A stretch of 16,402 nt of DNA. It comes from a virus. Taxonomy: Duplodnaviria > Heunggongvirae > Uroviricota > Caudoviricetes. Where the stretch lies: the IMG/VR virus record IMGVR_UViG_2681813262_000007. The stretch is one strand, 5' to 3'. How positions within the stretch are numbered: the stretch's first letter is position 1; every line of letters begins with the position of its first letter. Positions 162-4,868 of this stretch are shown one piece after another. A model generated the notes under the pieces. That model had not been told where the DNA came from. It was given only the letters and a program-made list of their open reading frames with translations, and did not search any database. A program made the translations under genes and the position numbers.

Positions 162-408
162 CTGCAGAAAACAGGTTCCCCGTTAAATGCTATGTTGCTC
201 ACAATTCAGTAAGTTGACAGTTGCCTGTCAGACTGGGCATTTGTTAAAAAAATTTCGCATGGTGAATCCCCCTGAGCGGAGGGGCGACTGGTGACGGTAT
301 AATCTCTGATTATCAAAACGAGAATGACGCGGGTTTAGTGGCACCGGGCTGAACTCACCGGGAGGCACCCGGCACCATGTGCATGATGATACAGATACGC
401 GGCTTTAG

Positions 409-466
409 CCCCTCTCCGGAGGGGTTTTCTTGTGGGCAAAAAAAGCCCGCGCTGGGAGACGCGGGC
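409..466. terminator. Pair of back-to-back GC hairpins: plus-strand terminator (409-431) and a possible minus-strand terminator (438-466)
   Basis: cccctc-tccg-gagggg followed by ttttctt (plus strand). Then A7 + gcccgcg-ctgggaga-cgcgggc, which on the minus strand reads as GC stem + T7. Confidence 0.4.
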
Positions 467-659: not shown

Positions 660-2441
660 ATGGCATTTAAACACTATGACGTGGTCAGGGCGGCATCGCC
701 GTCAGACCTTGCGAAACGACTGACACAAAAACTGAAGGAGGGCTGGCAGCCGTTTGGTAGTCCGGTGGCCATAACCCCTTATACCCTGATGCAGGCGATT
801 GCAGCAGAAGGTGATGTGGTCGTCAGTGGTGCAACTGAGCCGGAGTGGTACTACGTCATCGTACTGGCCGGGCAATCCAATGCCATGGCTTACGGTGAAG
901 GTCTTCCGCTTCCGGATTCATACGATGCGCCCCATCCGCGCATTAAGCAACTGGCCCGTCGTAACACAGTGACTCCCGGTGGTGAAGTATGCGTATTTAA
1001 CGACATCATTCCTGCTGACCATTGTCTGCATGATGTTCAGGATATGAGTACGATTAACCATCCCCGGGCTGACCTGAGCAAAGGGCAGTACGGCTGTGTC
1101 GGACAGGGCTTACATATTGCCAAAAAACTGCTTCCGTATATCCCTAATAATGCGGGGATCCTGCTGGTACCATGCTGTCGTGGTGGTTCGGCATTCACCC
1201 AGGGCACGGAGGGGACATTCAGCGAGTCCACGGGAGCCAGTCAGGATTCGGCTCGCTGGGGAGTGGGTAAGCCGTTATATCAGGATCTGCTTTTCCGCAC
1301 GAAGGCAGCATTGCAGAAAAACCCGAAAAACGTTTTGCTGGCGATATGCTGGATGCAGGGGGAATTCGATATGACGAATGCCAGTTACGCCCAGCAGCCA
1401 GCAGCATTTCTTGCAATGGTACAGCAGTTCCGTGCTGACCTTGCCGGGCTGGCAGCGCAGTGTCACGGTGGAAGTCCGGCATCAGTCCCCTGGATTTGTG
1501 GCGACACGACATACGCGTGGAAACAAGAACACGGTACGCAATATGAAGTGGTATATGGTGCATATAAAGGTAAAGAATCCCAGCAGATTTATTTTGTTCC
1601 CTTTATGACCGATGGTAGCGGAGTTAATACACCGACAAACAACCCGTCAGAAGATCCTGATATTGCCGGGTCTGGTTATTACGGTTCGGCATCCCGAACG
1701 AACAAAAACTGGGTATCATCAAATCGCCCGACGCATTTCAGCTCATGGGCGCGTCGTGGCATTATTCCCGATCGTATGGCAACTGCTATTCTGAACGTAG
1801 CCGGTCGCACCTTAGCCTTCATTAGTGGTAAGGCACCGGAAATCAAACCCTCGCCCGGCGGCGACACGCCATCGGGGCCGTCTGAAGATGCATCCATTCA
1901 GTTGTCAGATGGTGTATTTAAGATCACCAAGCAGAGCAATAAAGCCTGGTCCCTGACGCGCCCGGTGGATGACGCAGTCTCCCTGCTGACACGGGGTGGC
2001 AGACTGAGCTGTAAGTTTCGACTGTCAGGCGCACTGACCAACAACCAGTTCGGTCTGGGAATTTATCTGTATACCGATGTAGCGTTACCTGACGTCGTGG
2101 CGATGACCGGGACTGGTAACCCGTTCCTGATGTCGTTCTTCACCCAGACCACAGACGGCAAACTGAATCTGATGCATCACAAGAAAGCCGGAAACACAAA
2201 GTTGGGCGAGTTCGGGAATTACAGTAACGACTGGCAGACGCTGGAGCTGGTGTTCACCGCCGGCAGTGCCACGGTTACTCCGAAACTGAATGGAGTGGCT
2301 GGCCCGGCATTCCAGGTCATAAAAGACAGTCTGACAGTGGGACTAAATGCACTGACGCTGACGGATATTACCAAAAATGCAACGTATGGCGTTGAGATAG
2401 AAAGTCTGGTGCTGGAGATAAATGCACCGGCATCATCATAA
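660..2441 (+). CDS. nanS: Prophage-encoded sialate O-acetylesterase (NanS-p-like): N-terminal DUF1737-like domain, SASA/SGNH-type esterase core, C-terminal ~200-aa putative carbohydrate-binding domain
   Basis: 593-aa ORF with GGAGG RBS (651-655). Contains the GQSN serine motif ([16 protein letters not shown]) and a later WMQGEFD block typical of sialate O-acetylesterases. Architecture and position (upstream of the holin) match NanS-p morons of E. coli lambdoid and Stx prophages. Family assignment is from memory, not a search. Confidence 0.8.
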
Positions 2442-2810: not shown

Positions 2811-3161
2811 ATGACTCAAAACTATGAACTGATTGTGAAAGGGATCCGCAATTTTGAGAATAAAGTTACGGTAACTTTAGCGTTACGGGACAAAAAACGC
2901 TTTGACGGTGAAATTTTTGACCTGGACATCTCGCTGGACCGTGTTGAAGGTGCCGCGCTGGAGTTTTATGAGGCAGCAGCCAGAAGGAGCATCAGACAGG
3001 TCTTCCTGGATGTTGCTGCCGGGTTATGTGAAGGGGATGAGCAGTCGCCGGAAAAGCGCCCCGTAATTTTAGAGGCGCAGAATGTGTGGATAACCTACAA
3101 AGGAAAGCTACCAGGAAGAATTACTGGTTCTCTGAAGACTCCTCCGGAATCACAACCTTAA
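2811..3161 (+). CDS. Hypothetical 116-aa soluble charged protein inserted between holin and endolysin; possibly YdfR/DUF1327-like
   Basis: ATG 4 nt after the holin stop, GGGAGA RBS, no TM segment. A gene of similar size occupies the same holin-lysozyme slot in E. coli prophage Qin (ydfR) as I recall it; sequence homology not verified. Confidence 0.65.
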   Translation: MTQNYELIVKGIRNFENKVTVTLALRDKKRFDGEIFDLDISLDRVEGAALEFYEAAARRSIRQVFLDVAAGLCEGDEQSPEKRPVILEAQNVWITYKGKLPGRITGSLKTPPESQP

Positions 3162-3758: not shown

Positions 3759-3850
3759 GCAGAATATTTTGCTGAAAAATAAGGCATGGCCACGCGGGCG
3801 GATAACACGAAATCCTGCGAACTGGCGAAACGTAAGTGAATAAAAGTAAA

Positions 3851-3887
3851 AACCCCGTTTGTTGGCAGCAAGCGGGGTTTTGTTTTT
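3851..3887 (+). terminator. Strong rho-independent terminator downstream of the endolysin
   Basis: 11-bp stem aaccccgtttg/caagcggggtt (one G-U), 7-nt loop, followed by ttgttttt. Confidence 0.6.
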
Positions 3888-3952
3888 ATGGCAGTAAGCT
3901 ATGGGAGGCTGCCTTGATTGATTTTAGCAAACTGATTAGGGAGTTGCGACTC

Positions 3953-4048
3953 ATGATTAGTCAATTACCAAACTGGAAATTTTTGCTGGTCTGGAGCATC
4001 CCTTTTTTATGGGTAGTATCCCAGTTAATTGTGGCAATTAAGGGGTAG
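3953..4048 (+). CDS. Putative 31-aa hydrophobic peptide (MISQLPNWKFLLVWSIPFLWVVSQLIVAIKG)
   Basis: ATG with AGGGAG RBS 9 nt upstream; single predicted TM helix. Caveat: the locus is T-rich, which favours hydrophobic codons by chance. Confidence 0.3.
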   Translation: MISQLPNWKFLLVWSIPFLWVVSQLIVAIKG

Positions 4049-4050
4049 CT

Positions 4051-4182
4051 ATGTCAGACAAACTCATAACGCCGGCAAAGGTCCTGTGTGTGATTGTCGG
4101 TATTTCATTTTCACTAATGCTGGTTGCTCTTTTTCTGTCCCTCGCCTGGGTGATGTTGTCTTCGTCGGGGCTGCTGGGGTGA
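4051..4182 (+). CDS. Putative 43-aa single-TM peptide (MSDKLITPAKVLCVIVGISFSLMLVALFLSLAWVMLSSSGLLG)
   Basis: ATG 2 nt after the previous stop with AAGGGG RBS; clean TM helix. Too short for the 60-aa ORF track and in a different frame from track ORF 4029..4301. Confidence 0.4.
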   Translation: MSDKLITPAKVLCVIVGISFSLMLVALFLSLAWVMLSSSGLLG

Positions 4183-4184
4183 CA

Positions 4185-4301
4185 GTGACTGATGACATCA
4201 GCAGAGCGCTGGCTTTTGCTATTAAGTGGGTGGCTGTTGGTATTGCTGTGTCTCCGATGCTATATGGGCTGGCAAAACTGGTCATTGCGCTGAAATCGTG
4301 A
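4185..4301 (+). CDS. Putative 38-aa hydrophobic peptide, GTG start (MTDDISRALAFAIKWVAVGIAVSPMLYGLAKLVIALKS); paralog of the next peptide
   Basis: GTG 2 nt after the previous stop. N-terminus and core align with the 4313..4399 peptide (MTDDISRALAFAIKWVAV vs [18 protein letters not shown]), and the conservation is at the protein level in this frame. Confidence 0.4.
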   Translation: MTDDISRALAFAIKWVAVGIAVSPMLYGLAKLVIALKS

Positions 4302-4312
4302 ACTTTAAAAAG

Positions 4313-4399
4313 ATGAGTGCTGAACTTATTCGGGCAATGGCATTTGCCATTCGTATTGTGGCCATTGCTGTTCTGGTCTGGGCAATCCGTTGGTGGTGA
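4313..4399 (+). CDS. Putative 28-aa hydrophobic peptide ([28 protein letters not shown]); paralog of the previous peptide
   Basis: ATG start; stop falls 1 nt before the Rz ATG; paralogy with 4185..4301. Weak RBS. Confidence 0.4.
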
Positions 4400-4400
4400 T

Positions 4401-4868
4401 ATGAACCGTGTTCTGTGTGTGGTGATTATTGTCATGCTGGTGGCCTGTGGTGCGCTTAGTCTGGGGCTGAATCATTACCGTGATAACGCCATTACCTACA
4501 AAGCCCAGCGCGACAAAAATGTCAGAGAACTGAAGCTGGCGAACGCGGCAATTACTGACATGCAGATGCGTCAGCGTGATGTTGCTGCGCTCGATGCAAA
4601 ATACTCGAGGGAATTAGCCGATGCGAGAGCTGAAAATGAAACTCTTCGCGCTGACGTTGCCGCTGGTCGTAAGCGCCTGCGTATCAACGCCACCTGTCCA
4701 GGTCCCGTGCGTGAAGCCACCGGCACCGCCCGCGTGGATAATGCAACCGGCCCCCGACTGGCAGACACCGCTGAACGGGATTATTTCACCCTCAGAGAGC
4801 GGCTGATGACGATGCACAAGCAACTGGAAGGGGCGCAGGAATATATCCGCACTCAGTGCCTGAAATAA
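4401..4868 (+). CDS. Rz: Rz i-spanin (inner-membrane spanin subunit)
   Basis: 155 aa; N-terminal TM ([18 protein letters not shown]) and coiled-coil periplasmic domain. Closely resembles remembered lambda Rz ([17 protein letters not shown]...[24 protein letters not shown]). The 4317 start in the track is an upstream extension. Confidence 0.9.
4621..4806 (+). CDS. Rz1: Rz1 o-spanin (outer-membrane lipoprotein), embedded in the +1 frame of Rz
   Basis: 61 aa with signal peptide and lipobox (LVVSAC), proline-rich mature region ([30 protein letters not shown]) matching lambda Rz1. An alternative start at 4636 is possible. Confidence 0.85.

Follow-up and report, generated by a model that had tools for sequence, protein, structure and literature searches.

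Layout of the lysis cassette

The window analyzed here, a stretch of 16,402 nucleotides (nt) from the Caudoviricetes record IMGVR_UViG_2681813262_000007 of IMG/VR, is the late region of a lambdoid prophage. It carries a lysis cassette with an S21-type pinholin, a signal-arrest-release (SAR) endolysin (R), and the spanin pair Rz and Rz1, and the subject of this work is the interval between R and Rz, where a terminator-like hairpin is followed by four small open reading frames (ORFs), here named O1 to O4 (Table 1). A previous reading of the DNA letters without database searches (the sequence-only reading) had described four ORFs of 31, 43, 38, and 28 amino acids (aa) in this place, separated by 1 to 11 nt and preceded by a strong terminator. 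The ORFs were found as claimed at 3953-4399, with stop-to-next-gene gaps of 2 nt for O1, 2 nt for O2, 11 nt for O3, and 1 nt for O4, and the terminator also holds, being a 15-bp hairpin at 3849-3881 whose RNA fold has an energy of -23.8 kcal/mol (z = -4.8 relative to shuffles).

Taken together, the data presented below make it very likely that the interval consists of four separate micro-genes of a translated type, each encoding one dominant hydrophobic helix, each with its own start and ribosome-binding site and abutting the next gene, all within the Q-antiterminated late transcript behind the hairpin, and all belonging to portable modules. A 644-nt query covering the interval (3759-4402) matches E. 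coli 55989, among other genomes, at 100% identity; a partial match to it was obtained in 2068 of 5426 complete E. coli genomes, with at least 80% coverage in 587. The O1-O2-O3-O4 block is also present in isolated phages, for example PhiR5_1 and vB_EcoS-569R3, and is thus compatible with functional phages.

Table 1. Positions of the features discussed, in coordinates of the window
Feature	Position	Strand	Basis or remark
STnc100 (RF02076) / late-leader element	228-437	+	Full-length Rfam match, 161 bits; only Rfam family found in the whole window
593-aa cargo ORF	660-2441	+	phrog_143 (no assigned function); 55989 homologue annotated as DUF6645-containing
S21-type class II holin (pinholin), 71 aa	2591-2806	+	MYQM dual-start motif; Pfam PF04971 E=9e-33; PHROG holin families; class II holin in the E. 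coli 55989 annotation
YdfR/DUF1327 gene	2811-3161	+	Between holin and endolysin
SAR endolysin R (phage lysozyme)	3225-3758	+	Pfam PF00959; phrog_7 endolysin; weakly hydrophobic N-terminal SAR helix IRYGLSAAVLALIAVGA, hydropathy sum +2.7
Intrinsic-terminator-like hairpin	3849-3891	+	A-run, 15-bp stem (3849-3881), T-run
O1, 44 aa from TTG (most likely start)	3914-4048	+	phrog_6632; alternative 31-aa ORF from ATG 3953 is its C-terminal part
O2, 43 aa	4051-4182	+	Single-pass membrane peptide; phrog_4906 E=4.5e-21
O3, 38 aa from GTG	4185-4301	+	phrog_1115, phrog_3246, phrog_4493
O4, 28 aa	4313-4399	+	Paralog of O3, same PHROGs
Rz (i-spanin)	4401-4868	+	Pfam PF03245 E=2e-51; phrog_13; translationally abutted to O4
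Rz1 (o-spanin lipoprotein)	4621-4806	+	Embedded in Rz, +1 frame; ORF listing; LVVSAC lipobox read from the sequence; homologous ORF in locus L097 is PF06085 Rz1
Nu1	from 5303		
123-aa ORF (ruled out as a gene)	4064-4435	-	Spans O2-O4 and the Rz start

Coding evidence for the four ORFs

Near-identical copies were collected from IMG/VR and GenBank, giving a set of 77 loci; one further locus stops where its contig ends. Along the 515 nt of the ORF block, the 77 loci show nine single-nucleotide polymorphisms (SNPs), five synonymous and four not, and one disrupting indel, and in the same set 24 SNPs plus indels fall into the 60 nt that separate the R stop codon from the hairpin. The untranslated stretch 3' of R (3759-3832; 24 haplotypes with 24 SNPs plus indels) far exceeds the ORF block in polymorphism and is about 85% shared with the spacer between R and ant in Stx phages.

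Diverged copies were compared by the Nei-Gojobori ratio of nonsynonymous to synonymous differences (pN/pS), summed over pairs and computed in six frames, the binomial p values for a synonymous excess referring to single diverged pairs. In all four families, pN/pS is lower in the annotated frame than in any of the other five, which cover 0.24 to 11.1 overall. The O3 core gives 0.12-0.18 (next-lowest frame 0.24; p down to 2e-7) and O1 0.31-0.36 (next-lowest 0.59; p 5e-5), while O4, with homologues in loci L098 and L091, gives 0.39 (next-lowest 0.63; p 0.015) and O2 0.46 (next-lowest 0.56; p 0.006-0.04). Moreover, ORF length and frame are maintained across hundreds of loci, and homologues of the four families occur in Escherichia, Salmonella, Enterobacter, Citrobacter, Klebsiella, and Providencia. 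The check named in the sequence-only reading, conservation of frame with a synonymous excess in relatives, therefore came out in favor of coding, and O1-O4 are genuine genes.

The 123-aa minus-strand ORF was ruled out as a gene because antisense frames have higher pN/pS than the sense frames and because it could not survive module shuffling. It is the usual stop-poor by-product of hydrophobic coding sequence, and similar stop-free antisense stretches are seen in other arrangements.

Gene models and protein families

For O1, an ORF of 31 aa from ATG 3953 does exist, as the sequence-only reading had it, but the start has to be moved. A conserved N-terminus, IDFSKLIRELR, is encoded upstream of this ATG, and TTG 3914 has a GGGAGG Shine-Dalgarno sequence 5 nt upstream; therefore, O1 most likely starts at TTG 3914 and has 44 aa. 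The phrog_6632 profile also takes in residues upstream of ATG 3953 (E=1.3e-12 for the long form), and the homologues from Citrobacter, Enterobacter, Klebsiella, Providencia, Salmonella, and phage SEN34 all start with M/V-IDFSKLIRELR, a motif kept across six genera. The resulting peptide has an amphipathic N-terminus and one hydrophobic helix.

PGAP already lists O2, O3, and O4 of E. coli 55989 as hypothetical proteins, with O3 as a 51-aa form whose CTG start overlaps O2 (L001 4388-4543), and in some genomes only it calls O1 as a 70-aa GTG form crossing the terminator hairpin (L002 1578-1790). Both the 70-aa O1 and the 51-aa O3 are probably wrong starts, so that the present analysis corrects the database gene models of these two genes. 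O1 goes without annotation in most genomes, as does the O2 homologue in the 933W RefSeq record.

The O2 family comprises 103 cluster representatives, 42 of them of exactly 43 aa, and its residues 12-30 are almost invariant while the codons vary, which suggests specific packing of the helix. A profile scan of species-representative genomes with the O2 alignment matched only a 328-nt contaminant contig in a Xanthomonas assembly, and the families are thus absent from species-representative genomes. O2 was also considered as a duplicate of the Rz transmembrane domain (TMD), an origin that was rejected, the shuffle p of 0.016 over 18 comparisons not being significant. One O2 homologue has been reported before, under the name XECs191 and as a "novel small gene", among 465 intergenic ORFs found to be translated in E. 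coli O157:H7 Sakai (Hucker et al. 2017, PMC5597208). For XECs191, uninduced LB cultures gave 30.0 reads per kilobase per million (RPKM) for RNA and 12.6 RPKM for RIBOseq, with a ribosome coverage value (RCV) of 0.43, and the product is predicted as an inner-membrane protein with one transmembrane (TM) segment (PMC5597208). XECs191 is the 49-aa form MMGWLMISDKLITLVK..., is located between ant and Rz, and has the same sequence as the 933W variant; along the 43 residues of O2, this variant and O2 share about 65% identity. However, the report on XECs191 (PMC5597208) draws no link to the lysis cassette, to a function, to O1/O3/O4 partners, or to module shuffling.

O3 corresponds to the C-terminal 38 residues of a 48/60-aa family, MSKYKRILLRLTMKNGLELKAPVTDD...AFAIKWVAVGIAVSPMLYGLAKLVIALKS (also written MSKYKRILLRLT-MKNGLELKAPVTDD...), with members in E. 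coli and Salmonella, so that the first 10-22 residues of its family are missing; its GTG is an internal Val codon of the long family, 2 nt past the O2 stop. In the AlphaFold2 model of the 60-aa form, a short helix at the N-terminus is followed by one continuous helix at residues 22-59 (mean predicted local distance difference test score of 77). In the long family (L095 3001-3183; P0042, P0071), two in-frame starts lie 12 codons apart (M/V1 and M13), both with a Shine-Dalgarno-like sequence, and the extension between them is strongly basic (KYKRILLRL), which recalls the dual-start motifs of holins and antiholins.

The claim that the third and fourth ORFs are paralogous is well borne out. The O3-O4 similarity score was reached by none of 2000 composition-preserving shuffles (p<=0.0005), both proteins match the same PHROGs (E-values of 3e-24 for O3, 3.8e-6 for O4, and 8e-41 for the 60-aa O3 form), and chimeric or intermediate natural proteins exist (P0082, P0087, P0111). 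Also, the long O4 form of phage phiSTEC1575-Stx2k has the N-terminal extension too. O3 and O4 are thus true paralogs, O4 looking like O3 minus about 10 internal residues. A profile search of 1.84 billion representative proteins with the O3/O4 alignment returned 14 small proteins and no larger or annotated relatives.

A segment of O3 (4227-4275, KWVAVGIAVSPMLYGL) resembles the pinholin TMD2 (2693-2740; shuffle p=0.004), and in one chimeric database protein, P0092 from a 554-nt ENA contig, holin and O3 are fused precisely at the resembling segment. Nonetheless, homology was rejected, since hhalign gives a probability of 2% for the O3-family against the S21 holin profile and the DNA similarity is not significant; the likeness is a matter of chance, convergence, or assembly artefact.

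Each ORF had been predicted to be a single hydrophobic helix. By a simple position-independent sum of Hessa-scale values, O2 scores -3.5 and O4 -0.9, the Rz TMD giving -3.2, whereas O1 (+1.4) and O3 (+2.8 to +3.4) are marginal and similar to the SAR domain of the endolysin. Hence, only O2 and O4 score clearly hydrophobic. The hydrophobic helix lies at the C-terminal end of the peptides. No match for O1-O4 was obtained in Pfam or NCBIfam, holin families included, nor with the DUF2730 domain of Mu releasin in Pfam at E<=1, and the PHROG families matched carry the label "unknown function". The peptides are unlike spanins in having 28-44 aa, almost no extramembrane segment, and no lipobox.

The endolysin-spanin interval as a recombination hotspot

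A comparison of relatives, in a census weighted to the 80 best matches per scan, reveals at least 12 arrangements between the endolysin and spanin genes, composed of at least six small-ORF families (O1-O6) and ant- or Rha-type genes, beside five endolysin types. This interval is therefore a recombination hotspot with shuffled portable modules, and the description of the ORFs as cargo agrees with it. The window is of the O1-O2-O3-O4-Rz type. Phages 933W and P13374 have ant-O2-Rz, Stx1a_NIID112183 (L006) has ant-like-O1'-O2-Rz, and PhiR5_1 has ant-like-O1'-O2-O3-O4-Rz. The commonest arrangement in the O3 sample is O3L-O2-Rz, and O3L is also found as O3L-Rz in Salmonella with an HP1-type holin, as O3L-O4-Rz (L110), and as O3L-O2-O3-O4-Rz (L182). 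Further types are O6-O3-O5-O4-Rz (L097-L099), O5-O3-O2-lipoprotein in a holin_8/holin_3_7/GH108 cassette, O4L-lipoprotein in an M15 cassette, and O1-spanin in Enterobacter with a GH19 endolysin.

The statement that Stx phages carry a different, larger gene in this slot is right insofar as ant is present in 933W, P13374, and Sakai, but an O2 homologue also lies there, directly before Rz and behind ant. Consequently, the module is no alternative to the content of Stx phages, which have ant plus the O2 homologue. In fact, O2 is the most widespread module and stands directly upstream of the spanin gene in most arrangements, those of Stx phages included.

Among about 240 loci, O2, O3, and O4 were seen only in lysis cassettes. 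All 80 sampled IMG/VR loci of the O3 family lie after an endolysin or before a spanin-type gene, and O2 and O4 are located before Rz or before a 60-aa lipoprotein. The neighboring cassettes are diverse, combining the S21 pinholin with SAR lysozyme, an HP1-type holin with lysozyme, or holin_8 and holin_3_7 with GH108, M15, or GH19 endolysins. O5 (49/65 aa, no PHROG match; L098 3176-3325 and L100 2807-3004) and O6 (50 aa, phrog_12997; L098 2862-3014) represent two further small families with a hydrophobic tail, and the O5 stop overlaps the next start (ATGA).

This modularity bears on the idea that one multi-pass membrane gene, for example for a LysA-like four-helix protein, decayed by frameshifts into four ORFs. 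Four hydrophobic helices in a row, in frames 2, 1, 0, and 2, would fit such an origin; however, the modules occur alone or reordered elsewhere with their own start, stop, and Shine-Dalgarno sequence, the O1, O2, and O3 searches gave no longer containing protein except for mis-called overlapping ORFs of up to 90 aa, and the profile search of the representative library described above produced small proteins only. A decayed gene is thus extremely unlikely and was rejected on the independence of the modules and their signals.

Two observations concern other variable parts of these cassettes. Rz is missing from those that combine holin_8 and holin_3_7 with a GH108 or M15 endolysin (L100/L102 3279-3461; L091 2063-2245; L118; L129). 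There, the small ORFs are followed by the 60-aa lipoprotein, which has an LVGC lipobox, contains three Cys in its mature part (about 30 aa), and belongs to phrog_7528 (no assigned function). The YdfR/DUF1327 gene is present in some cassettes and absent from others that are alike in the rest, and the copy of E. coli 55989 is interrupted; its position is a second variable slot within the lysis cassette.

Cassette design and expression

In all four unrelated contexts of O1, including those in Enterobacter, Citrobacter, and SEN34, the start codon is GTG or TTG and is preceded, at a distance of about 30 nt, by a terminator-like hairpin, and the leader is partly conserved between the Enterobacter prophages and SEN34. 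Hairpins 3' of the endolysin gene are also found in loci L098 and L100. At the other end of the modules, the last codons of O1, AAG GGG TAG (IKG-stop, AAGGGGTAG), constitute the Shine-Dalgarno sequence of O2, and AATTAAGGGGTA precedes O2 in L100 too, where it is intergenic. Likewise, the end of O4, TGG TGG TGA (RWW-stop, TGGTGGTGA), is the Shine-Dalgarno sequence of Rz, and an ATG follows 1-8 nt past RWW-stop in most of about 170 loci. Because the 3' ends double as ribosome-binding sites, the shared C-terminal motifs are explained at the DNA level; moreover, an insertion that supplies the next ribosome-binding site would not be polar on the spanin gene.

This economy could also mean that the peptides themselves are inert, the ORFs being translated spacers that relay ribosomes over the 640-nt gap to Rz (coupling, polarity protection) or selfish or neutral remnants in slow decay. 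The stop-start distances of 1-11 nt, the 3' ends encoding the next Shine-Dalgarno sequence, the frameshifts in some copies, and a conservation of RWW-stop and IKG-stop that is partly a matter of DNA are all in line with this. However, a relay ORF does not need a conserved peptide, and purifying selection is seen away from the junctions: the O3 core has pN/pS of 0.03-0.15 at pS up to 0.69, residues 12-30 of O2 are kept while synonymous sites vary, and the N-terminal motif of O1 is conserved across genera. Inert peptides are therefore improbable.

No sigma-70-like promoter was detected on the + strand between 2400 and 5400 by a consensus scan, which is weak evidence. The element at 228-437 looks like a lambdoid late-promoter leader with its tR' region, which would place all downstream genes, the small ORFs included, in the Q-dependent late transcript. 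From the lack of a detected + strand promoter and this late leader, we infer that the ORFs are expressed from the Q-antiterminated transcript and that the hairpin would block other read-through. The 593-aa ORF sits between the late leader and the holin, the cargo position where Stx phages carry stx.

The same data speak to whether O1-O4 could be type I toxin-like peptides, i.e. small membrane depolarizers checked by an antisense RNA or by the upstream terminator, serving as addiction or abortive modules or as holin-independent depolarizers. O1-O4 are small hydrophobic peptides, as type I toxins are, with a size and hydrophobicity like those of the Hok/Ldr/Ibs/TisB class; the terminator would shield a toxic gene from read-through, and a weak antisense promoter-like site is present at 4057-4028. 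Nonetheless, this site scores 9/12, which is within chance expectation, and was not found in the other O1 contexts; no Rfam family, and hence no antitoxin small RNA family, lies in the region, and no promoter of their own was detected on the + strand, consensus scans being weak tests. Furthermore, the genes form a packed, translationally coupled operon, unlike toxin loci, which stand alone and have long structured leaders. A toxin-like role is very unlikely.

Possible functions of the small proteins

The sequence-only reading had suggested, as inference, peptides that tune lysis timing or membrane-targeting toxins, and the confinement of O2, O3, and O4 to lysis cassettes speaks for a part in lysis. 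As a tentative preference, O1-O4 could be accessory peptides of the inner membrane that are produced late and modulate membrane steps in lysis, a reading that fits O2, O3, and O4 best. It is suggested by the strict confinement of these three to lysis cassettes, whichever of five endolysin types is present, by the way they are coupled to the start of the spanin gene, by the near-invariant helix of O2, and by the precedents of Lcc6 and Mu releasin (see below). In this scheme, the peptides would be made only late in the lytic cycle and would insert into the inner membrane with the N-terminus inside, and helix-helix contacts would adjust the membrane steps of lysis, the candidate targets being the triggering time of the holin or pinholin, the release of the SAR endolysin, and the action of the spanins. 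Since lambda-type cassettes of K-12 do without them, the peptides would be accessory rather than essential.

Several observations weigh against this proposal. Of the O1 loci sampled, about one half are situated among the baseplate genes of SEN34-like myovirus prophages, between V and W/J, and one Citrobacter locus lies between tail genes I and J (L090, phage SEN34, 1900-2140; L194, L222, L238; L108 3380-3640), which weakens a role in lysis for O1. The contexts of O1 and O5 among tail genes imply that the position in lysis cassettes may only mark a permissive insertion site, and the presence of the modules beside unrelated holins and endolysins argues against one specific phage partner. Also, decayed or frameshifted copies exist (L089, L075, L238, P0089, P0090, P0093), the endolysin and Rz genes of the K-12 prophages DLP12 and Qin overlap with nothing between them, the likenesses of O3 to TMD2 and of O2 to the Rz TMD are not statistically solid, and the census of contexts has the weighting given above. 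Because DLP12 and Qin have no homologues, no evidence from K-12 small proteins is available.

These points lead to a different possibility, namely, that the genes are non-lysis cargo of the moron type: mobile passengers of late operons, consisting of a hairpin plus a micro-ORF, that act at the inner membrane on the host or on an incoming phage (superinfection exclusion, a block of re-injection, modulation of a host membrane protein), the lysis junction merely tolerating insertions. The baseplate and tail loci of O1 fit this well, as they sometimes form O5-O1-O1 arrays, some of them decayed, with a Rha/ORF11CD3 gene adjoining or lipoprotein cargo next door, and O1 and O5 outside lysis cassettes stand each time behind a terminator-like hairpin. 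The hairpin accompanies O1 in its four unrelated contexts, ant occupies the same slot in Stx phages, and the modules are indifferent to the type of holin and endolysin. However, O2, O3, and O4 were never seen outside lysis cassettes; with no promoter of their own detected, expression in the lysogen, where exclusion morons usually act, is not expected; and no match was found in PADLOC for O1-O6 or the 60-aa lipoprotein. For the set as a whole, moron-type cargo is a serious competitor, somewhat less likely than lysis modulation. O1 is a more promiscuous late-operon passenger than O2, O3, and O4. The lysis and tail hotspots are populated by the same cargo types.

A bolder extension of the lysis-modulator reading is a combinatorial toolkit, in which enterobacterial temperate phages would shuffle micro-gene cassettes (hairpin, ribosome-binding site, single-helix peptide, next ribosome-binding site) to retune lysis. 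The peptides would then be trans-acting mimics of the TM helices of lysis proteins, O3 and O4 mimicking pinholin TMD2 via a small-residue face (W-x-A-x-G-x3-S) as an anti-pinholin or co-pinholin and O2 mimicking the Rz anchor (VLCV...MLVA). We consider this improbable; if true, the peptides would be lysis-clock regulators of a new class, and some 38% of the complete E. coli genomes would carry at least a part of the set, with Stx phages among the carriers.

The timing of lysis sets the burst size of a phage and, in Stx phages, also the release of toxin, and the textbook cassette of pinholin, SAR endolysin, and spanins is thought to be complete. Should the peptides prove to modulate the holin, the endolysin, or the spanin, this paradigm system would gain a fourth layer, a tunable one, and the hotspot at the junction would be explained. 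Even otherwise, the cassettes illustrate a way of placing micro-genes into translationally coupled operons that causes no polar damage: a hairpin in front, a weak start other than ATG, and a 3' end serving as the next ribosome-binding site.

Comparison with known systems

Small accessory genes between conserved late genes are familiar from the morons of lambdoid late operons, such as bor, lom, cor, and HK97 gp15, which are variably present and moved by recombination. O1-O4 share with them the variable presence between conserved flanking genes. However, a classical moron has a promoter of its own in front and a terminator behind it, and its expression takes place in the lysogen, whereas O1-O4 have the hairpin upstream, no detectable promoter, and no terminator before Rz, with a 3' end that supplies the ribosome-binding site of the next gene, and thus do not form an autonomous transcription unit.

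Extra membrane proteins beside holin, endolysin, or spanin genes, which modify lysis timing or assist the holin, are also found in P2 (LysA) and PBSX (XhlA). XhlA has a soluble N-terminus and a C-terminal TM segment, and LysA has about 140 aa and several TM segments. In comparison with O1-O4, both are larger and come from other hosts and phage groups, and no sequence relationship to them was detected by family searches.

The O1-O4 ORFs were already known as database hypothetical proteins, and one homologue had been reported as translated. On the other hand, the papers searched were not found to describe how several micro-gene families are shuffled as modules in this slot, how the cassettes are built, or the gene models as corrected here.

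The closest functional precedents concern SAR-endolysin systems. Mu releasin gp25 (DUF2730; Chamblee et al. 2022, PMC9239132) is reported to be a small membrane protein that controls the release of the SAR endolysin. Mu has no holin, in contrast to the cassette of the window, and O1-O4 are without a DUF2730 match. Lcc6 of the Shewanella phage LambdaSo, a protein of 65 aa with a single TM segment, is required for lysis by pinholin and SAR endolysin, being needed at the holin step and harmless when expressed alone (bioRxiv 10.1101/2024.01.23.576932). Compared by description, it is like O1-O4 in being a tiny single-TM phage protein in a system of pinholin, SAR endolysin, and Rz-Rz1. Nonetheless, Lcc6 has an N-terminal TM segment with a cytoplasmic tail of 43 aa, whereas the helix of O1-O4 is C-terminal, and it is encoded near int/xis, outside the lysis cassette, and is essential there, whereas O1-O4 lie within the cassette and are dispensable for the cassette type.

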